From contig CAVQOI010000006.1 of NCBI GenBank assembly GCA_963714425.1, positions 6,230-70,229 of the forward strand: a DNA stretch of 64,000 nt. The letters run 5' to 3'. Positions 17,838 to 33,272 of this stretch are shown one piece after another. Made by a program: the position numbers and the translations under genes. Origin of the DNA: an uncultured Chloroflexia bacterium (lineage in GTDB: Bacteria; Chloroflexota; Anaerolineae; Anaerolineales; UBA4823). The first letter of the stretch is position 1; each line of letters begins with the position of its first letter. The notes under the pieces are model-generated. The model made no database searches, had not been told where the DNA came from, and saw nothing but the letters and a program-made list of their open reading frames with translations.

Positions 17838-18170
17838 TGTTGTATGGTGCGGTTTTACCGCACCATTTTTTTCTCCAAATATAATATCAAGATATGCCTG
17901 AATATCGTCGATTATTTATCGTGGGCGGCACATACTTTTTCACTGTGGTTTCCTACCACCGCCTGCCCATATTGACATCTTCTCAAGCCAGATCATTGTT
18001 ACGCGCTGCTTGGGAGAATGTCCGCCAACGATTCTCTTTCAGCATTGATTTCGTTTGCCTGCTGCCTGACCAAACCCTGCGCTTGGGGAGGATATGGGCA
18101 GGATGGGCTGTAGGGAGTGAAGGTTGGTGTGGTCGCAGACCACACCCTACGACTACTACGCAGAGGATGG
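17838..18170 (+). mobile_element. Internally deleted REP-associated tyrosine transposase (RAYT) remnant with flanking REP hairpins
   Basis: MPEYRR...GGTYFFTVV...CLLPD homology ends just before the HUH motif; upstream gta-tggtgcggt-ttt-accgcacca hairpin; downstream ggtgtggtc-gca-gaccacacc-ctac. Confidence 0.8.
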
Positions 18171-18285
18171 GCTTTACCACCAGGTTACGAGAATGGTGAT
18201 TGGGAAAAGATCAAGAAACTTCAATCGCCCCCACCCCGGGCTGAATGATCGATAGCTGATATTGAAATTCTGAGGTGATGAACCC

Positions 18286-19051: not shown

Positions 19052-19330
19052 GTTGTAGGGTGCGGTTTTATCGCACTATTTTTTCATTCTCCTATATCAT
19101 TTCAAGATATGCCTGAATACCGTCGATTTTTATCGAGGGCAGCACATACTTTTTCACTATGGTTTCTTACTGCATCTGGGCATTGCCGGAAGGGCGAAGC
19201 TGCCATCTGGCAGCGACGATTTTGGGAGCACACCATCCGGGATGAGGCTGATCTGAACCGGCATCGAGATACCATCCATTACAATCCTGTGAAGCACAGA
19301 TTGGTACACAGGGTGGTTGAATGGCCATTA
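19052..19330 (+). mobile_element. Second RAYT remnant (frameshifted, doubly deleted)
   Basis: Near-duplicate of 17838-17956 with GTAG REP, then CIWALPE and IWQRRFWEHTIRDEADL...IHYNPVKH. Confidence 0.8.
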
Positions 19331-19668
19331 CAACATTCAACTTTCAACCATCAACCTACAACTGAGAAAAAAAGGGATATTTTGGGGATATCGCCTGGAA
19401 CCCCTTGCAAACCTAGAAAATATGTGCTATATATACATCATCTTCGGGGTGTCGCTCTCTGCGTAGATCCCTCCAGGCGCCGCACCCTACCAACCCACCC
19501 GGCTTCTCACCTTCGTACCAGCCGCAAAAAGAGGAATTGTTTCGAATTGAATTTTTTTCTGGAACAATTCGCGTTATTCGTTCATTAGCGGCATTCGCGT
19601 TGAGATCTCAGCGCTCTCTGCGCACTCAGCTTTTTTTCTTTTTGGAATTCGCCTTCCCGCCCCCTCCG

Positions 19669-22162: not shown

Positions 22163-22438
22163 CTAAGAACCGTAATGATAGCGCGCCTGCAGGAAGTCGA
22201 TGCGCTCGTCGCGCACCAGGTAGACAATGCGGTGCTCCTGAGACACCCGGCGTGACCAGACGCCGGGCGATAAGTATTTCAATGGTTCCGGCTTGCCGAT
22301 CCCTTTGAATGGGTCGCGTAGGATCGCCTCGATCAGGTTGAATATCCGCAGGGCGGTCTTGCGGTCAGTTTCCACCCAGTACCGCAAGTCTCCCAGGAAT
22401 TCCGGTTGGAAGACCGCCTCACGCTGACCGCGACTCAA
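22163..22438 (-). CDS. yoeB: Txe/YoeB toxin
   Basis: PFKGIGKPEPLK, WSRRVSQEHRIVY, RYHY. Confidence 0.93.
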   Translation of the reverse strand: MSRGQREAVFQPEFLGDLRYWVETDRKTALRIFNLIEAILRDPFKGIGKPEPLKYLSPGVWSRRVSQEHRIVYLVRDERIDFLQARYHYGS

Positions 22439-22709
22439 GGCCTACCTCGCGGCGAAGCACTTCCAGGGTTTGAGGTGAGCCCTCATCGCGCAAGGCGCGC
22501 CCTAATGCAGAGAGCAGCCGCTCGGCGTTCTTGGGAGAGCGCAGTAGGGAAGCTGTCTCTAGCAAGGCCTCCAGCTCATCAACAGACACCAGGGCGACGT
22601 CTTCTTGCCCACGGCGCTGGATAATGACCACCTGGCGGTTTTTGGTGACTTCGTCAAGCAACTTCGCCAGGCTGGCACGCGCCTGTGTGTAATTGGTTTG
22701 GATAGTCAT
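22419..22709 (-). CDS. yefM: Phd/YefM antitoxin
   Basis: NYTQARASLAKLLD, ETASLLRSPKNAERL; overlaps the toxin. Confidence 0.93.
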   Translation of the reverse strand: MTIQTNYTQARASLAKLLDEVTKNRQVVIIQRRGQEDVALVSVDELEALLETASLLRSPKNAERLLSALGRALRDEGSPQTLEVLRREVGLESRSA

Positions 22710-22874: not shown

Positions 22875-24209
22875 TTAGCAATCCAGCAAATAGGTTTCCT
22901 GCTCTTCCAGCACCGTCCTGGGATCGAGCACCACGCGCTCATCCTGTGCGCGTGCGATCAACGGAGGCACTCCCTGGCGCAGCAGCTTCAACAAACGATC
23001 GGGGCTGGGCACATCCAGCGCCAGCAGCCAGGTGGGCAGCGTCTCGCCGGGCAGGCTGCCCCCGCCCACAGTTGATTCGCCAGGGATGACCTCACCTCTT
23101 CCGAGGGTAGCCGCCCAGCGCTCGGCTGTAGCCTTGATCGCCTCGGGCTGAGCGGCGATCATGCGCCAGATGGGGATCTCACGCTCAGCCTCATCCTTCA
23201 GGTAGTGCAGCAAGGTGGCATTCAGCGCCGCCAGGCACAGCTTGTCTGCGCGCACAGCCCGCGCCAGGGGATGTTTCTTCAACTTTGCCACCAGGTCGCG
23301 GCGCCCCACAGCGATGCCTGCCTGCGGGCCGCCCAGCAGCTTGTCGCCGGAAAAGCACACCAGGTCGGCGCCCGCCCTCAGCAATTCCTGCACGGTCGGC
23401 TCGTGCGCCAGCCCAAAGCGGGCCGTGTCCACCAGCGAGCCAGAGCCCAGATCATCCACGACTGGGATGCCAGCCTCGTGTGCAACGGCTGCGATCTCCT
23501 CCAGGGATGGCTCGCTTGTGAAGCCCACGATACGGAAATTGGAGCGATGGGCGCGCAGGAACAGGGCAGGTTTCTCTTCCAGGGCGGCTTCGTAGTCGCT
23601 GAGGTGCACGCGGTTGGTGGTGCCTACCTCCAAGAGCCGCGCTCCGGATTGCTTCATCACATCCGGGACGCGGAAGCCCCCGCCGATCTCCACCAGCTGG
23701 GTGCGCGCGATGACCACTGCCCGGCGGCGCGCCAGAGCAGTCAGCGCCAACAGCACAGCTGCGGCGTTGTTGTTCACCACCAGGGCAGATTCCGCGCCAG
23801 TCAGGCGGGCGAGCAAGGCTTCGGCATGGAACAAGCGCGAGCCGCGCCGCCCTTGCTCCAGGTCATATTCCAGGTTGGAGTAGCTCAGCGAGATCTCTCG
23901 CACCGCATACAAGGAGGCGGCGCTGAGCGGGGCGCGGCCTAAGTTTGTCTGCAGGATGACTCCCGTGGCGTTGATCACAGGCAGCAGGGTGGGCGTCGCC
24001 CAGGTCTGCAGTAAGTCCCTGGCGCGGGCGAGAAGCGCAGGCTGGTCTGGCACAGTTTGTTTTTTGGGGTAATGGAGGCGCGCTTCATCCAGTGCGAGGC
24101 GCAGGGCTTCAACGGTCAGCGGTCGCCCAAAATTGGCGACCCATTCAATCACATCAGGGGATTGCAGGAGCTGGTCAACGGAAGGAAGTGAGCGCAGGTT
24201 AATCGCCAC
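22875..24209 (-). CDS. selA: L-seryl-tRNA(Sec) selenium transferase
   Basis: LRSLPSVD, VINATGV.L.TNLGRA, SNLEYDL, VNNNAAA, LVEIGGGFR, FSGDKLLGGPQAG, VGGGSLP. Confidence 0.97.
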   Translation of the reverse strand: MAINLRSLPSVDQLLQSPDVIEWVANFGRPLTVEALRLALDEARLHYPKKQTVPDQPALLARARDLLQTWATPTLLPVINATGVILQTNLGRAPLSAASLYAVREISLSYSNLEYDLEQGRRGSRLFHAEALLARLTGAESALVVNNNAAAVLLALTALARRRAVVIARTQLVEIGGGFRVPDVMKQSGARLLEVGTTNRVHLSDYEAALEEKPALFLRAHRSNFRIVGFTSEPSLEEIAAVAHEAGIPVVDDLGSGSLVDTARFGLAHEPTVQELLRAGADLVCFSGDKLLGGPQAGIAVGRRDLVAKLKKHPLARAVRADKLCLAALNATLLHYLKDEAEREIPIWRMIAAQPEAIKATAERWAATLGRGEVIPGESTVGGGSLPGETLPTWLLALDVPSPDRLLKLLRQGVPPLIARAQDERVVLDPRTVLEEQETYLLDC

Positions 24210-26446: not shown

Positions 26447-27124
26447 TCAATTCTCGTCGATGGTTCCCACGGTTTGGGATATCCAGCCAAGCGATACGGC
26501 GCGCATCACCGCCTCAGTCCGGCTGGCAGCCTGTAGTTTATTGAAGATGTGCGCCAGGTGACCCTGCACGGTTCTGTCGCTGATACCTAATTGCACACCA
26601 ATGGCTTTATTGGTATAGCCTCTGGCAGTCAATTTGAGTACCTCCAGCTCGCGCTCGGTGAGCGCTTCCACCGCTTGCTTATCGGGCTTGCCGGCGATTT
26701 GGGCAATCAATTTGCGGGCGATGGATGCATCCAGGGCGGATTTTCCCGCATGCACGTCCCGCACGGCCCGGATGATCTCACCTGGCGCGGCGGTCTTGAG
26801 CACATAGCCGTTTGCCCCCGCTTGCAAGACAGCCATCACGTAAGGATCATCATCGTAAGCAGTGAGCACCAGCACGCCCACGCTGCGCATGTTGACACGC
26901 ACCCAACGCGTGACCTCGATCCCGCTGGCCTTTGGCATCTGGATATCCAGCACAGCCACATCGGGAGCGTGTTGTTGGATCAGTGCTTTGGCGCTCTCAC
27001 CGTCATCTGCCTCAGCAACCACCTGGATATCGCCGGCGTGCTCAAGAAATTGACGGATACCGGCGCGCACCACAGCGTGGTCATCGGCAAGCAGGACGCG
27101 AATGGGAGGGGTGGGTGCTTCCAT
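26447..27124 (-). CDS. NarL/LuxR family response regulator
   Basis: LADDH, LDIQMP, LTERELEVL...NKAIG..L.IS.RTV. Confidence 0.95.
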   Translation of the reverse strand: MEAPTPPIRVLLADDHAVVRAGIRQFLEHAGDIQVVAEADDGESAKALIQQHAPDVAVLDIQMPKASGIEVTRWVRVNMRSVGVLVLTAYDDDPYVMAVLQAGANGYVLKTAAPGEIIRAVRDVHAGKSALDASIARKLIAQIAGKPDKQAVEALTERELEVLKLTARGYTNKAIGVQLGISDRTVQGHLAHIFNKLQAASRTEAVMRAVSLGWISQTVGTIDEN

Positions 27125-27786
27125 TAGGCTTCCTCAGTGAATAGAGCCCTTTCGAGACGTGGAAAAGCAAACCAGACGAACCCCAGCCCAAACAGCACGC
27201 CAGTCAGCAACCGCATCAGCGAGTTAAAGGACCCCCAGGCGTCTCCTGCGTAGAAGCTAGATGGCAGGGTGTGAGCAGTGATGGCCGCCAGCCATGAGTT
27301 GACTGAGCGAAAGCCTTGCTCATTGCCGGCGAGGTCACTGATGAAGTGGCTGGTGCCATCCAGCGCCATGGGAAAGAGCAGCAGAGCCAAACCCCACCCC
27401 GAGAGCGCCCTTATACGGAGTCGCAAAGGATACCAGATCACGCTAATGAGCCAAACGCTCATAAACATTGATACCATTCGATCAGACCAGGCGACCTTCC
27501 AGCCCATCTCCGGGTTGCCAATGAACTGCCTCAAAACCATGGGGTTCGTTGTGAGCTGCCAGGAGTCCTGAATTTCTGCCAGCGAATAGGTCGCTGCTTG
27601 TCCAAAGAAGAAATACGATCGCTGCGGAAGTTGGTGACAGAAAAAAGAGTAGATGAAGTATATCGCATTTGCCGTCCTCTCCAGCGTCAATTCCATAAGT
27701 ACAGGAGCCAGGAACGGGGTAAGCGCAAATATCCCCAGAAGCACGCTAAATGAGACAAACCAGCGACGAAGCAGAAATGCCATCAC
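27124..27786 (-). CDS. DUF2085-like membrane protein
   Basis: CHQLPQRS motif, PMALDG.SH, RLLTGVLFG. Confidence 0.75.
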   Translation of the reverse strand: MMAFLLRRWFVSFSVLLGIFALTPFLAPVLMELTLERTANAIYFIYSFFCHQLPQRSYFFFGQAATYSLAEIQDSWQLTTNPMVLRQFIGNPEMGWKVAWSDRMVSMFMSVWLISVIWYPLRLRIRALSGWGLALLLFPMALDGTSHFISDLAGNEQGFRSVNSWLAAITAHTLPSSFYAGDAWGSFNSLMRLLTGVLFGLGFVWFAFPRLERALFTEEA

Positions 27787-28139
27787 GAGCTTGATGTCTG
27801 GTTAAGGAGCGTGCGCCGCACGACGCTTTCAAGGTTTTCGTCTGTAGCCTCCCCTGGGGTTTCCACGAGGGTGATGCGCGCATGTTGCCCTCTGCCGTGC
27901 ACGACAAGGCTTGCCGGTTGGGAATTTGGGCCATAGACCAGGAGGACGACGATTTGACAATCGCACTGATTGCTGCCATGCTGCGGGCAAACGCAGTCCG
28001 CATGGGCGAACCGCGCCACCTGGAGGTCAAACGTACGCATGACCTGCAGACCTGCACCAGCCAGCCGCTGGCTTATCCAACGGAGGGTGGCATCAAGAGG
28101 TTGGTCCATTTCCACGATCGGGCTGGCAATCATCATCAC
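27783..28139 (-). CDS. Small Cys/His-rich putative metal-binding protein (DUF302-like fold possible)
   Basis: H-x2-CVCPQH-x4-CDC; stop overlaps the next gene. Confidence 0.7.
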   Translation of the reverse strand: MMMIASPIVEMDQPLDATLRWISQRLAGAGLQVMRTFDLQVARFAHADCVCPQHGSNQCDCQIVVLLVYGPNSQPASLVVHGRGQHARITLVETPGEATDENLESVVRRTLLNQTSSS

Positions 28140-28166: not shown

Positions 28167-28661
28167 TCAGGGCACCCAGTTGGAAAGAACAGTCAGTTCA
28201 TGCTCGGGCTGGGTTGGGTCGTTGCTCGCCAGGTGGACGCGAAAGTCGTGCGGTCCTCCCATATCTCCGTGCATCATAAACTTCATCGAAAGGGTCGTCG
28301 TATTTCCCGGTTGAAGGACCATCGAACCGATGGCGGGAGTTGGCGGTCAACACCCCGCCACGACTTCAATGTACGGTGTGTCCTGGAAGCGAAGTGGCTG
28401 GTCGCCAACGTTCGTTAGGTCGAAGGAGACCGTTACCCATTCTCCCAGGCGCACGTCGCCAAGATCAACATGCTCCTTGTCGACCTTCAATTTGGGCGAG
28501 CCATTCACCTCGATGACGGTATTGCTGCCCGATCTGCTTCTGAAGAAAGACCCGGCAGCCAGGATGAGCAAGCCCAAGCCGCCAACGGCAAAGACGATAG
28601 GCCAAAACGATGTACGCTTGCGAGCCTGCTTGAAAGAGCCTTTGGATTTGGTTTGGCTCAT
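28167..28661 (-). CDS. Candidate selenoprotein: membrane-anchored Ig-like (DUF1573-like) protein, 164 aa, Sec at residue 105
   Basis: In-frame TGA (28349-28347) after VVAGC; frame continues 59 codons (PPTPAIGSMVLQPGNTTTLSMKFMMHGDMGGPHDFRVHLASNDPTQPEHELTVLSNWVP), completing the domain; SECIS-like hairpin; selA nearby. Confidence 0.8.
28318..28334 (-). promoter_or_regulatory. Bacterial SECIS-like stem-loop
   Basis: mRNA UGA-N12-GCCAUCG-GUU-CGAUGGU; apical loop about 19-20 nt after UGA and beginning with G. Confidence 0.65.
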
Positions 28662-29674
28662 GGTATTACCTCCATGTCAAATTGGAATGTCCATAAAAAG
28701 GCTACTAGGTCCCAGGTCTCTGCTTCAGTGAAGATCGGACCCCAGTAGGGCATACCCGTGCCCATCCCGCCACGGATTATCTTGCCCTGGAGATGCGCCG
28801 GGCTGGCGGCGAGCATGTGCTCGGCCTCGGTGAAGTCGGTGGGAGGCTGGCTCATCTCCCCCTGTAGCATGTCGGCGTGCTCGCCACCATCGAGTTCAGC
28901 CACCTCGGCTGCGAAAACCCCATCTCCCTTGCCGCTCTCGCCGTGACAGGCAGAGCAATTTTGTAGGTATAGCATCTTCCCGGCGACCAAAGTCTGTGTG
29001 GGTGCATTCAATTGCCAGGCATAAGCCACCAGGTCCCATAAATCCGCATCGGTTAGTTCATGTGAATTATCCAGGTATCCACCTTTACCCAGATCCTTCC
29101 GGGCATCTTCCGGGCTGTGCGTGCGGTAATAATCTACGCTCAGGTACACTTCTGGGATCTTGATCCCCAAGGCCGCGCCGCGCGCAGCCGACGGGCGACG
29201 TTCAGGCAGATCCTCTGCGTGGTGCTCGGCATCAATATCCAGCCCTAATTGGGCATATAATGGCGCAGGCGGTTCGCTGGCATCTGAGGCCCCGCCTGTA
29301 ACCTCGATCGTGCCACGCATACGCCAGTGGTTAGCCCCACACCAGCGCGTGCAGTAGTACGTGTATTTACCCGGCTGGTCGAATAGCAGTTCGACTTCGC
29401 TGTACTGACCTGGCAAGACGTCCACAGCAGGTTTGTCGCTCTGCCCCAAGGCAAAACCATGAACCACATCGTCGGATGTTAGGATCAACCGCAGAGGCAC
29501 ACCCATCTGGGCGGTCAGGTCGCCGGGTATCCAACCGCCTGCCTCGGGCATGCGGGCGCGCACTACCACGACCTGCGCGCTTGGAAAGAGCCAGTAAAGG
29601 CTCACCGCCAGCGCGATTGAGAGGAGCAATCCCAGGACCAGTATGCGAGCCAGCCGTTCCGAGCGCGTTATCAT
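28658..29674 (-). CDS. CuA-type cupredoxin fused to cytochrome c
   Basis: N-terminal TM, DVVHG + CTRWCGANHWRM (CuA ligand pattern), CSACH heme motif, GMP axial Met; ATG at 29674 right after the upstream stop. Confidence 0.85.
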   Translation of the reverse strand: MITRSERLARILVLGLLLSIALAVSLYWLFPSAQVVVVRARMPEAGGWIPGDLTAQMGVPLRLILTSDDVVHGFALGQSDKPAVDVLPGQYSEVELLFDQPGKYTYYCTRWCGANHWRMRGTIEVTGGASDASEPPAPLYAQLGLDIDAEHHAEDLPERRPSAARGAALGIKIPEVYLSVDYYRTHSPEDARKDLGKGGYLDNSHELTDADLWDLVAYAWQLNAPTQTLVAGKMLYLQNCSACHGESGKGDGVFAAEVAELDGGEHADMLQGEMSQPPTDFTEAEHMLAASPAHLQGKIIRGGMGTGMPYWGPIFTEAETWDLVAFLWTFQFDMEVIP

Positions 29675-29675
29675 C

Positions 29676-31031
29676 TCAAGCCACCAATACCCCCAGCATC
29701 CCGAGTGTAAACCCAAGGCTGAATATTGCCACAGGCAGTGCCAGAAGACGTGCAGGGCGCTCTGGCAGGCTCTCAGAAGCGATCCGGTAGGCTGTGCGCG
29801 CAGACCAGATAAGCCCACCAAGCAATACTGCCACCTGAAGGGCGGGCACAGCACTGCTCAAATAAGGCGTCCAGGTTGCGCCAGACGTGCCCAATAAGTT
29901 CCAGCCCCAGCCCATCGGGTCGGACAAGACAGGCCAGATATAGGAGGCATTGGCAAACACAAAGGAGAGACTGAATGCGATCCAGGCAGAGAGTCCCAGC
30001 GGCACCATGGCGTAGCCAAAACGGATGAAAGCCCTGCGCAGGGGGAGCTGGATGCCTGAAAGTCGCCTTCCCAGCCAGACAGCCAGCCAGAACAAGCCAG
30101 GCAAGATGCCCAAAACAAATAGCACGAACACCAGGGCATAGATCAGCCAGGGCAGGCTGCCTGTTGCATTTGCGGCCATTTTGAGTGCACCCCAAGGACC
30201 GAGCATCATCGCTGAATACAACATGGCTGAGCCAAGCATGATAAAGGCTTTGTAGACCTCATCCAGACTTTGCCCGCGAATTTGATCAAGGTCGGCGCCG
30301 AAAGGCCGTAGCCGGATGGCAACGTTATCATGCGGGCAGGTACGCAAGCACTCCATGCAGGTCCCGCAATATGTGTTCTTCACCAGACCACCCGGGAAGA
30401 CCTGCCAGGGGCAGCCGTAACCATCGGAATTTCCAGTGTAACAAGTTTTCTCTGTATGAGCGGCGCAAATGGCAGTATCGCGCACGCGCACCTCCATAGG
30501 AGCAAGCTGCGAGTACAGTCCGATAAACCCACCTACCGGGCAAAGGTAACGGCAGAAGGCGCGCCGCTCGAAGACAAGGCTGGCGCCAATCGCCAGGAAT
30601 AAGAAAGCTGCCAGCACCACCGCAGAGATCAGCGGCTGGGTAAGCACGGTGATGCTGAAAAGCGCGATCAGCAGGAATCCTGCATTTTGCAGCCAAATAT
30701 TTCGCAGACGGTTCGGCCAGCGCAAACCCAGGCCAATTCCTTTACCTCCGGGTTTCAAGATTGCTCCGCGCTGCAACCACTCACCGGGTACCGGGATCGG
30801 GCAGATGCTGCACCAGCCGCGCCCGAAGAAGGGCACCGCCACCAGGATCAGGATCGCCCACCAAGCAATCCATACGAAGATGATGCTGAAATTGCGGCTG
30901 CCAACCGGCGTTCCGAACACCCCTGAGACAATCGCAACCACAAAACCGCCCAGAGCGACCAATGTGACCAGTAGCTGGGGCCAGCGGTTGCGCAAAATCG
31001 CCATTACGAGAGGGTTGCGGGTGATATCCAT
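29676..31031 (-). CDS. Membrane polyferredoxin (NapH/RdxA/FixG-like 4Fe-4S binding protein)
   Basis: GRGWCSICP, FCRYLCPVG, C-x5-C-x8-CP, CGTCMECLRTCP; multiple TM. Confidence 0.88.
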   Translation of the reverse strand: MDITRNPLVMAILRNRWPQLLVTLVALGGFVVAIVSGVFGTPVGSRNFSIIFVWIAWWAILILVAVPFFGRGWCSICPIPVPGEWLQRGAILKPGGKGIGLGLRWPNRLRNIWLQNAGFLLIALFSITVLTQPLISAVVLAAFLFLAIGASLVFERRAFCRYLCPVGGFIGLYSQLAPMEVRVRDTAICAAHTEKTCYTGNSDGYGCPWQVFPGGLVKNTYCGTCMECLRTCPHDNVAIRLRPFGADLDQIRGQSLDEVYKAFIMLGSAMLYSAMMLGPWGALKMAANATGSLPWLIYALVFVLFVLGILPGLFWLAVWLGRRLSGIQLPLRRAFIRFGYAMVPLGLSAWIAFSLSFVFANASYIWPVLSDPMGWGWNLLGTSGATWTPYLSSAVPALQVAVLLGGLIWSARTAYRIASESLPERPARLLALPVAIFSLGFTLGMLGVLVA

Positions 31032-31035
31032 GCTT

Positions 31036-31512
31036 TCAAGTTCGCTTCGTTGCGAGAGAGAAGACGACAGCTAGGGCTAACAACGCCAGGCTTGCGGAAC
31101 GCCAGATCAGTGTATTACTACCGACCACAAGTTTCCCTGTCATAAACGGATGCAGTGCACCGCAAGTTACCGAGCAGCGCAGTCGGAACGTCCCCGGTTG
31201 GTTGGCAGTGAAGGAAAGGCGCTCTGCCTGGCCTGGATCGGCGGTTTGGCTGAGCCCGTAACCATCGATGTAGATACCATGCACGACATCTGTGGAAATC
31301 AGCTCGATGGTGACCTGGTCTCCTGTGTTCACGTGGATGGTTGCAGGGGAATATTGGTAAGCACTGGCGTGGACACGAAAGGTGCGTTCCTGTGGAGCGA
31401 TCGCACCCGCTGGAGCGGGAGCAAATATGATGATCGCGCCCATCCCTAGCCAGACCAGCCACTGCCAGGGTTTGAGAACCTTGCTAATTCTCGTCGGTGG
31501 GTAAGCGTTCAA
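31036..31512 (-). CDS. Small membrane-anchored CuA-type cupredoxin (COX2-like domain)
   Basis: DVVHG + CSVTCGALHPFM; RBS GGAGG before TTG at 31512. Confidence 0.85.
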   Translation of the reverse strand: MNAYPPTRISKVLKPWQWLVWLGMGAIIIFAPAPAGAIAPQERTFRVHASAYQYSPATIHVNTGDQVTIELISTDVVHGIYIDGYGLSQTADPGQAERLSFTANQPGTFRLRCSVTCGALHPFMTGKLVVGSNTLIWRSASLALLALAVVFSLATKRT

Positions 31513-31622
31513 TACGATCCGCCTCCAGTAAATTATTTGCAAACGTTAATTTTAGACCTTCCCCCTCCCGCCGCCTGCGCTTGTTGCGGCTTACAAGGAG
31601 GCCGGAGAGAGGCCGGGAACAT

Positions 31623-32063
31623 TCAGGGCATATTGGAAGGCCCATATTTGGCGTAGGTCTGATCTACATAGGAGCGTATTTCTGCTACGCTCTTATCCTG
31701 CTTGAGCAGGCGCATTGCGTCTAGGGTTATATCGACACAGATCGAACAGCCCTGGGCGTGCGCGTCGTAGATCGGGGCTCCGTTCGGATCCACGCCCGAG
31801 GCATAACAGGCATAGTTAGACGTGTGCCCCATGGCGCCGCACCCGCAGTAACAGGGGAGTTGCTCGAGCACATCCGGGTTAGCAAAAGCGAACTGGTATG
31901 CCTGCTGGACCGAGACTGGCGCAGACTGGACCTCCGCTGGCATTTCCTCGAGGGAGGCCATCTTTAGTTGCGTTGCGCTGGACGTGTCTTCACCGGAACA
32001 GCCGGCTGCCAGGAGCGTAATGGAAAGCAGGAGTACGAAGACAAGCAATGGTTTTCGTTTCAT
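31623..32063 (-). CDS. PCYCGC motif lipoprotein
   Basis: Lipobox AAGC; PCYCGC, H-x-SN-x2-CY, HAQGCSIC; start may be 32069. Confidence 0.9.
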   Translation of the reverse strand: MKRKPLLVFVLLLSITLLAAGCSGEDTSSATQLKMASLEEMPAEVQSAPVSVQQAYQFAFANPDVLEQLPCYCGCGAMGHTSNYACYASGVDPNGAPIYDAHAQGCSICVDITLDAMRLLKQDKSVAEIRSYVDQTYAKYGPSNMP

Positions 32064-32254: not shown

Positions 32255-32770
32255 ATGAAAACCGCATTGATTTTGCTTCTGGCTGGGATGTTGTTGGCTG
32301 CATGCGGATTGCCTGTCTGGGGTATGCGCCGTCCTGATCCCCAAGGGTCGAATGCGTGGTTTGGGCAAAAGCATGACTCAGACGGTGAGCAAATCTATCT
32401 CACTGCCACCAACCAGCAGGGTGAGAGCATCCCATACACAGGTGGACCGGGCTCTGGTGGCATGATGCAATCGCGGTTGGCTTGCGTCTCCTGTCACGGG
32501 AAGGGCGGCAAGGGCGGGGAGCATTGGATGCACATGGATTATATGAAAGCGCCGGAGATCCGCTGGCAAGCTTTGAACAATGAGGAACGGGATGAGCATG
32601 AGGGATTGGAAGGGGACGCTCACGAGGGCTATACGCTGGAGATGTTCCGCCAGGCCGTGGTCGATGGGCAGCATCCGGATGGGGAAGCCCTCGATTGGGA
32701 TATGCCCCGCTGGCAGTTGGCAGATGGTGACCTAGAGGACTTGTTCGAGTATTTGAAGACCCTGCCATAG
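32255..32770 (+). CDS. Monoheme cytochrome c lipoprotein
   Basis: Lipobox LAAC, CVSCH, DMPRW; His/Glu-rich loop. Confidence 0.85.
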   Translation: MKTALILLLAGMLLAACGLPVWGMRRPDPQGSNAWFGQKHDSDGEQIYLTATNQQGESIPYTGGPGSGGMMQSRLACVSCHGKGGKGGEHWMHMDYMKAPEIRWQALNNEERDEHEGLEGDAHEGYTLEMFRQAVVDGQHPDGEALDWDMPRWQLADGDLEDLFEYLKTLP

Positions 32771-32803
32771 CTCTAGCGCTGCAAATTCATAAACTCTACT
32801 TCG

Positions 32804-32825
32804 ATTCTTCACAGATTCTTCACAG
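32804..32825 (+). promoter_or_regulatory. 11-bp tandem direct repeat, OmpR-family-like site
   Basis: attcttcacag x2 upstream of 32901. Confidence 0.5.
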
Positions 32826-32900
32826 GCGTTTGGTATCGTTGGAGTATAGACACTTGTTCAAGGTGATTCGACGAAGACCTCGAGGTATAGGAGCTATCGA

Positions 32901-33272
32901 ATGAAAGCAACGACGATCTGGATCATTGCCGTCATCCTGATCTTGGCAATCTTCCTGTTCTTACCGGGTATCCTGAGGCTTGCTGGATTAGGATGGTACG
33001 GAGACATGATGGGAGGCCGCGGGATGATGGGGGGCGGATTTGGTTACTTTTCCCCACTTGGTTTCATCGGGATGGGGGTGATGGCTTTACTGCCGGTGGC
33101 TCTGATTGTGCTGCTGGTACTGGGTGGTGTAGCTTTGATGAATAGCCTCTCGGGATCAGGACGCCCTGTACCTCCTCCGACGGCGGCTACCGGGCGAAGC
33201 TGTCCGAGTTGCGGCAAGCCTGCTCAGGTGGATTGGAACACCTGCCCTTATTGTAGCTCTACGCTAATCTAA
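32901..33272 (+). CDS. Membrane protein with Met/Gly-rich loop and C-terminal zinc ribbon
   Basis: MMGGRGMMGGG, CPSCG...CPYC; RBS AGGAG. Confidence 0.8.
   Translation: MKATTIWIIAVILILAIFLFLPGILRLAGLGWYGDMMGGRGMMGGGFGYFSPLGFIGMGVMALLPVALIVLLVLGGVALMNSLSGSGRPVPPPTAATGRSCPSCGKPAQVDWNTCPYCSSTLI

Follow-up and report, generated by a model that had tools for sequence, protein, structure and literature searches.

The window, meaning the whole stretch of 64,000 nucleotides that was analysed, carries on its minus strand a gene with an in-frame TGA that is very probably read as selenocysteine (Sec), together with a set of neighbouring genes that recurs beside its homologues. The features of the locus, in the order of their coordinates, are listed below.

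22875..24209, minus strand: selA, a Sec synthesis gene, which passes TIGR00474
24721..27124, minus strand: NarL-type response regulator and HisKA_3 sensor kinase, frequently operon-linked
27124..27786, minus strand: DUF2085 membrane protein, found near 30 of 80 homologues
27783..28139, minus strand: downstream Cys/His-rich protein of 118 aa without a Pfam or NCBIfam match, found near 26 of 80 homologues
28167..28661, minus strand: full coding sequence of the predicted 164-aa Cys-Sec Ig-like selenoprotein, with its true stop at TGA 28169-28167
28170..28496, minus strand: Ig-like DUF1573/ASH-type beta-sandwich, residues 56-164 (PF07610, PF22544 and fold model)
28248..28286, minus strand: Met/His loop, residues 126-138, in which the alignment has M130, M134 and H138 invariant and H131 nearly so
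28318..28334, minus strand: SECIS-like hairpin with a 7-bp stem, whose GUU loop (28327-28325) begins 19 nt past the UGA
28347..28349, minus strand: in-frame UGA, predicted Sec105 from the codons of homologues, next to the Cys104 codon (28352-28350)
28542..28598, minus strand: hydrophobic membrane anchor, about residues 22-40, with a hydropathy of 2.32 over 19 residues
28658..29674, minus strand: upstream gene for a cupredoxin with a CuA motif fused to a c-type cytochrome, its probable start being 29674
29676..31031, minus strand: Fer4_5 (NapH/NosR-like) Fe-S membrane protein
31036..31542, minus strand: membrane-anchored cupredoxin with a CuA-type motif
31623..32063, minus strand: lipoprotein of the PCYCGC family (PF13798), more constant than any other neighbour

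The selenoprotein gene begins with an ATG at 28661, and its start is overlapped by 4 nt by the stop of the cupredoxin-cytochrome c gene. An ORF finder returns a frame of 104 aa that closes at TGA 28349-28347, directly after VVAGC; when this TGA is translated as U, the frame continues for 59 sense codons to the second TGA and gives a product of 164 residues (...VVAGC-U-PPTPAIGS...MMHGDMGGPH...NWVP), and the start of the next gene (28139) follows 27 nt downstream of that stop. A scan for promoters and terminators gave results at chance level, and the RNA runs X6 and X8 yielded short contigs only, in which no transcription is seen. The N-terminus is rich in Lys and Arg, with six such residues before the hydrophobic segment and two after it, and the protein would be oriented with its N-terminus inside and its domain outside; the hydropathy of this segment upholds the N-terminal membrane anchor that had been proposed in a first-pass annotation of the same DNA. 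A lipobox-like LAAC or LTAC is present in some homologues.

The Ig-like domain, which the first-pass annotation had described as DUF1573-like, is matched by PF07610 (DUF1573) at 33.5 bits against a Pfam gathering cut-off of 26.1 and by PF22544 at 34.6 bits, again above the cut-off. The predicted model of the domain is a beta-sandwich with a pLDDT of 96.8 in which the C-terminal half completes the fold, and its closest solved counterpart is PDB 2qsv (Z 14.2, rmsd 1.8 over 103 residues), so that both the model and the fold search point to the ASH/PapD-type Ig-like sandwich by which DUF1573 is recognized. A search of the ESM Atlas returned generic DUF1573 clusters only, and in a profile search against 1.84 billion representatives, multi-Ig proteins dominated and only 14 single-domain Cys-Cys matches were of use. 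In 26 aligned sequences, G103, C104, U/C105, P106, M130, M134 and H138 are invariant and H131 is nearly so; moreover, the Met/His patch that had been noticed in the single sequence proves to be a conserved one, as MHx(1-2)MxGxH occurs in 127 of 135 matches, the first His of the motif being missing in five of the 135. The order of the strands suggests that the sandwich carries the turn with C-U and the Met/His loop at one and the same end. A fusion protein, in which a Met/Gly-rich domain of about 270 aa precedes the Cys-Sec domain, is encoded by four genomes from a single family (L275:5311-6492, L276, L277 and L278), at sites away from the CuA genes. A decayed gene fragment is found at L273:4688-5113 in genome G043, and a frameshifted gene copy, with a complete operon around it, at L289:5069-5535 in G258; both genomes have intact copies elsewhere.

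Read-through of the TGA as Sec, as claimed at first reading, predicts that homologues have TGA or Cys at codon 105 with conserved flanks, and this is what the homologues hold. Of 103 distinct homologous genes in the pooled set, 92 have TGA at codon 105 and 11 a Cys codon, and TAA, TAG and TGG do not occur; the in-frame UGA is thus aligned to Cys and never to another stop, with conservation on both of its flanks and with 59 sense codons that complete the domain. In a phylum sample of 30 loci, the aligned codon is TGA in 26 and TGT in one, the others being two unrelated weak matches and one unaligned locus. GTDB contigs contain 412 stretches that encode relatives; the best 80 of these 412, nearly all labelled Anaerolineae or Chloroflexota, carry 81 genes, with TGA in 70, TGC in nine and TGT in two. 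A sample of 401 genomes of the class, in which two unpublished genomes (G748 and G789) enter the tallies only, gives 85 matches, of which 77 have a single TGA, six have no stop and two have TAA. Both TAA matches were rejected as true stops at the Sec site, one being a terminal stop and the other a decayed fragment without the motif; one of the six stop-free matches is a TGT orthologue, and the three that were examined are CGC-type DUF1573 proteins. A quick tree has TGA on all deep branches and the Cys forms nested among them, with five changes for TGC (at least two of them forced by starred branches) and two for TGT, a distribution on which Sec looks ancestral within the subfamily, with several later losses. 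Natural Cys-Cys orthologues with complete operons are found at loci L068, L098 and L104.

Alternatively, translation could truly end at the TGA, or the triplet could be a sequencing error or encode Trp, with a truncated protein of 104 aa as the product. This explanation draws on the protein databases, where the 111 homologues comprise 68 that end at GC, 36 Cys-Cys proteins of full length and seven other forms, at least six of the seven with Trp at the site. Trp at the Sec position is seen in P0157, P0158, P0160, P0174, P0186, P0191 and P0265, all on contigs shorter than 2 kb. In the one Trp cluster that was checked, however, the Trp forms (contigs of about 1 kb) are identical over 102 residues to truncated calls (longer contigs); because of this identity, the Trp forms fit a gene caller that reads TGA as Trp, which is the likely origin of such database entries. 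The absence of TAA, TAG and TGG at the site in the 103 distinct genes also counts against a stop or an artefact, as do the downstream half, which completes the fold, and the use of TGA as the normal terminator of this gene as well. Furthermore, a separately assembled contig of 326 nt (run X1, depth 3.6), which may not be independent of the source of the window, spans the codon and agrees with it there.

In the bSECIS model, a hairpin lies just 3' of the UGA and a G opens its apical loop. Both features are found here, as the first base of the hairpin GCCAUCG-GUU-CGAUGGU (28334-28318) is the 13th past the UGA; the SECIS-like hairpin 13 nt after the UGA had been pointed out at first reading, where the strand of the gene (minus) was left unstated, and comparison confirms it as a covarying structure. 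The exact geometry, that is, a GT-starting loop 19 nt past the TGA on a stem of at least six pairs, is met with at 12 of 127,376 genomic TGA triplets, the geometry being taken from this gene. In an alignment of 25 distinct rows, pairing in the 7-bp stem reaches 97%, with 28 two-sided changes at four pairs; none of 500 shuffles and none of six slid registers attains this covariation, and the same stem is predicted by RNAalifold unprompted. At least six of the seven pairs are kept in 91 of 92 TGA genes, in both TGT genes and in one of nine TGC genes, counts in which kin are not independent, and the apical loop begins with GT in all 92 TGA genes. The stability of the hairpin itself is not unusual (z = +1.23 for 80 nt and z = -0.29 for 45 nt), which is a point for the stop or artefact reading, and the case accordingly rests on comparison.

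The genome also encodes the machinery that a bacterial selenoprotein needs, since selB, selD and the gene for tRNA-Sec (selC) are found elsewhere in it in addition to selA. The selA gene had been taken at first reading as a marker of Sec synthesis; its identity stands (TIGR00474), but its nearness carries no weight, because selA is absent from the flanks (up to 8 kb) of all 80 homologous loci, and its proximity in the window is thus incidental. In the class sample, 69 of the 70 TGA-holding genomes have selA, selB or tRNA-Sec, the one without any of the three being 85% complete, and four of the seven genomes whose retrieved copies are all TGC have none of the three. The presence of selA by itself is no discriminator, as it is carried by 348 of the 401 class genomes and by 60 of the 70 TGA holders. 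Three TGA genomes labelled Actinomycetes, Verrucomicrobiota and Pseudomonadota have no selA, selB or tRNA-Sec; since their genes nest among Anaerolineae in the quick tree, these genomes may possibly be misbinned. The SelD of the present genome is a selenoprotein itself, with an in-frame TGA (CAG-U-ASK; G000:C13:45596-46531, L003), and the hairpins predicted downstream of that TGA in selD are unlike the GUU-loop type.

The most probable reading of the locus, at roughly 97%, is that UGA105 is decoded as Sec by means of the hairpin and SelA, SelB, SelD and tRNA-Sec, yielding an anchored DUF1573-type protein of 164 aa with a G-C104-U105-P-P site and a Met/His loop. A stop, an error or a Trp codon at this position is correspondingly very improbable. 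Direct computation supports the recoding and the fold, the function being read from motifs and gene context. The four contrary results that had been named beforehand, namely TGC, TGT or TGG at the codon, no conservation downstream, TAA or TAG in relatives and absence of selB or selC, did not appear, and the checks proposed with them (homologue codons, hairpin covariation, selB, selC and selD, and sequence over the codon) came out as predicted.

Whether the family was already catalogued had been left open at first reading, and the answer is divided. Selenoproteins with a DUF1573 domain and a UGC motif are catalogued (PMC9312934, PMC13188914) as OS_HP2, first reported from Olavius symbionts (PMC1976440); the xGCU form, by contrast, is not among the 119 families in the list of a 2026 review, in which different Sec positions are counted as separate subfamilies (PMC13188914, as far as its accessible part goes). 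Similarly, DUF1573 is not mentioned in the main texts on deep-Sep (PMC12013277) and BSepDB (PMC13326102) or in the covered part of the BSepDB supplement (PMC13326102), and the literature search found no description of the xGCU form, which other supplements and the BSepDB database might list.

For the register of Sec, a comparison set of at least 121 UGC-type loci was collected with a motif pattern, and 38 rows, being every third of 114 usable ones, were aligned. The OS_HP2 model NF041425 matches all 38 rows (best E 9.4e-42); it gives the window protein 25.1 bits against a cut-off of 100 bits, and it has six weak matches among 26 members of the present subfamily (best E 1.1e-6). The two groups have the Ig-like domain of DUF1573 in common (hhalign probability 99.0, E 6.4e-18), with Sec in the same Cys loop. 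However, the Sec of OS_HP2 replaces the first Cys of CGC (UGC), whereas that of the window protein follows the second Cys (xGCU), three positions further on, and the profile alignment accordingly pairs U-G-C-T of OS_HP2 with E-G-C-U of the window subfamily. The column that holds Sec in OS_HP2 is occupied in the window subfamily by Glu, Gln, Ala and others (E in 107 of 135), and never by Cys or Sec; the Met/His loop of the window subfamily is absent from the UGC consensus, and the genes of this operon are found at none of the 121 UGC-type loci listed, of which only 28 are 5 kb or longer. It is therefore well supported that the window protein is a DUF1573 member outside the OS_HP2 subfamily, and it represents a new subfamily and not a new kind of protein, since DUF1573 selenoproteins with Sec elsewhere in the loop are already catalogued.

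The CGC-type DUF1573 Cys proteins share with the window subfamily the Pfam match, the 2qsv-like fold and adjacency to PCYCGC in the same class, but they carry CxC in place of a vicinal C-U or C-C followed by Pro-Pro, and the quick tree sets the window subfamily apart on a branch of its own (SH-aLRT 93, not starred). CGC-type proteins of the same class at L286:4365-4943, L287:2901-3404 and L288:4526-5585, the last with two in tandem, adjoin PCYCGC, DUF2085 or the Cys/His-rich gene and have His in the corresponding loop; they are probably the non-Sec counterpart of the module. An adjacent Cys-Sec pair is also present in HgcA, SaoL, SaoC, MbdU, KCU-star and Csac_0668 (PMC13188914), in which the domain differs, and the NCBIfam models of these six have no match among 26 subfamily members.

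The neighbourhood of the gene is largely conserved. Near the best 80 of the 412 homologues, the cupredoxin-cytochrome is found at 65 loci, the Fe-S protein at 57, the second cupredoxin at 60 and PCYCGC at 63, counts in which the cupredoxins cross-match and which overstate independence because the 80 loci are close kin; in the 41 loci with long flanks, the corresponding numbers are 39, 35, 36 and 40. At some loci, PCYCGC or the Fe-S protein adjoins the gene and no cupredoxin lies within the DNA examined. Both cupredoxins of the window and 110 of the 143 ORFs of the cupredoxin cluster contain H-x34/35-C-x3-C-x3-H-x2-M, for which the CuA motif H-X34-CXEXCX3HX2M (PMC6669012) may be compared. The operon with these two CuA-motif proteins (31036-31542 and 28658-29674) contains no oxidase subunit I and no NosZ catalytic domain; one PCuAC protein, two Sco proteins and a heme-copper oxidase are encoded elsewhere in the genome. 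Genes for YHS, P1B-ATPase or multicopper-oxidase proteins accompany 40 of the 80 loci (1.0 Mb), against three matches in the 3.94-Mb genome of the window itself, and six of the 12 P1B-ATPase ORFs at those loci carry a CPH motif. Further along the window, a c-type cytochrome lipoprotein and a Gly/Met-rich zinc-ribbon membrane protein are divergently encoded at 32255-33272 (plus strand) and recur near three and six of the 80 homologues, respectively. Two small ORFs after selA (22163-22709, minus strand) resemble a YefM/YoeB-type antitoxin-toxin pair, and two ORFs starting with MPEYRR (17894-18199 and 19109-19588, plus strand) resemble broken copies of a REP-associated transposase.

The suitability for Cu or other soft metals that had been read from the Met/His patch finds support in this genomic context, from which we infer a copper or soft-metal role. 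The favoured reading, somewhat more likely than not, is that the protein is a membrane-anchored, outward-facing protein for Cu(I) binding or relay, with Cys-Sec and Met/His ligands, which acts for the CuA proteins of the operon or in copper buffering. In this mechanism, the domain would face outward, the Cys-Sec pair and the Met/His loop would form a soft-ligand Cu(I) site, and the selenoprotein, tethered to the membrane, would bind or relay copper on behalf of its own operon; together with the PCYCGC lipoprotein, it would hold Cu(I) or pass it to the two co-encoded CuA-motif proteins, or would buffer copper, while the Fe-S membrane protein would be an electron source in the module. Assembly of CuA requires reduction of its Cys residues and Cu(I) chaperones, of which PCuAC/PcuC and Sco, small extracytoplasmic Met/His or Cys proteins that serve CuA, offer a purely functional analogy (PMC6669012). 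The mode of work would resemble theirs without membership in either family, as the window protein is not a PCuAC (no PF04314 match at E 0.01, and no HXnMX21HXM) and not a Sco protein (no PF02630 match, no CX3CP, and a beta-sandwich model instead of a thioredoxin fold). The need for a new CuA chaperone is weakened by the PCuAC and the two Sco proteins that the genome already encodes elsewhere.

It is improbable that the selenoprotein instead binds a different soft metal or a metalloid, such as Hg, Ag, Au or As, for detoxification or for sensing through the linked two-component system. The CU motifs listed for HgcA, MerB-like SaoL, MbdU and a CopZ-like form (PMC13188914) would agree with it, and so would the sensor kinase near 38 and the regulator near 46 of the 80 loci; however, none of the 27 recurrent-neighbour representatives scanned matches a mer or ars family, and it is copper genes that recur.

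The PCYCGC lipoprotein bears on a further alternative. It is described in the relevant part of PMC13068155 as being of unknown function, and a Sec-containing form of its family exists elsewhere (NF041379), the copy in the window being all Cys. Its model has a pLDDT of 96, and a fold search with it found nothing above Z 4.8; a faint likeness to CcmH (E 0.031, Z 4.3) is within the range of chance. A complex predicted for a natural Cys-Cys domain and the PCYCGC protein encoded beside it scored 0.12 (mark 0.32) and carries no weight for or against. Three long proteins appeared as PCYCGC fusions; the two examined (P0278 and P0279) look like frameshifted joins with a cupredoxin, neither has an Ig domain, and as evidence they are weak.

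The vicinal Cys-Sec pair could instead be a redox couple, passing between selenenylsulfide and selenol plus thiol, which relays electrons from the Fe-S protein to the disulfides of the PCYCGC lipoprotein, to apo-CuA cysteines or to the CxxCH of apocytochrome, with the Met/His loop being secondary. G-C-U resembles the tail of animal thioredoxin reductase, CxC-type DUF1573 proteins likewise lie beside PCYCGC (L286 and L287), and the faint likeness of PCYCGC to CcmH would point in the same direction if it were not within the chance range. Moreover, Sec is usually a mark of redox catalysis (PMC13188914), and the cysteines of CuA must be reduced before metalation (PMC6669012). However, such a relay leaves unexplained both the invariant Met/His loop, which is missing from the UGC consensus, and the copper-resistance neighbours, and it is a less likely explanation than Cu(I) binding or relay.

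The copper reading can be taken one step further, to an as yet undescribed five-gene copper module of Chloroflexota (PCYCGC, CuA cupredoxin, Fe-S protein, CuA-cytochrome c and selenoprotein) in which a chaperone dedicated to loading CuA would bind Cu(I) directly through Sec; this more specific form is tentative. If it were true, there would be a natural selenium-based copper chaperone, a fold with two independent gains of Sec, and CuA clients without an oxidase or NosZ partner in their operon.

As a result, a well-supported subfamily is added to the selenoproteins, its TGA form being present in 70 of the 401 sampled genomes of the class, and the databases hold it mostly as stubs of 100 aa (68 of 111). 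The two registers suggest that Sec arose twice, separately, within a single loop of the DUF1573 fold, and the natural changes from Sec to Cys, with the matching decay of the SECIS element, are built-in controls. Two domains of unknown function, DUF1573 and PCYCGC, thereby gain a candidate role in copper or CuA biology.
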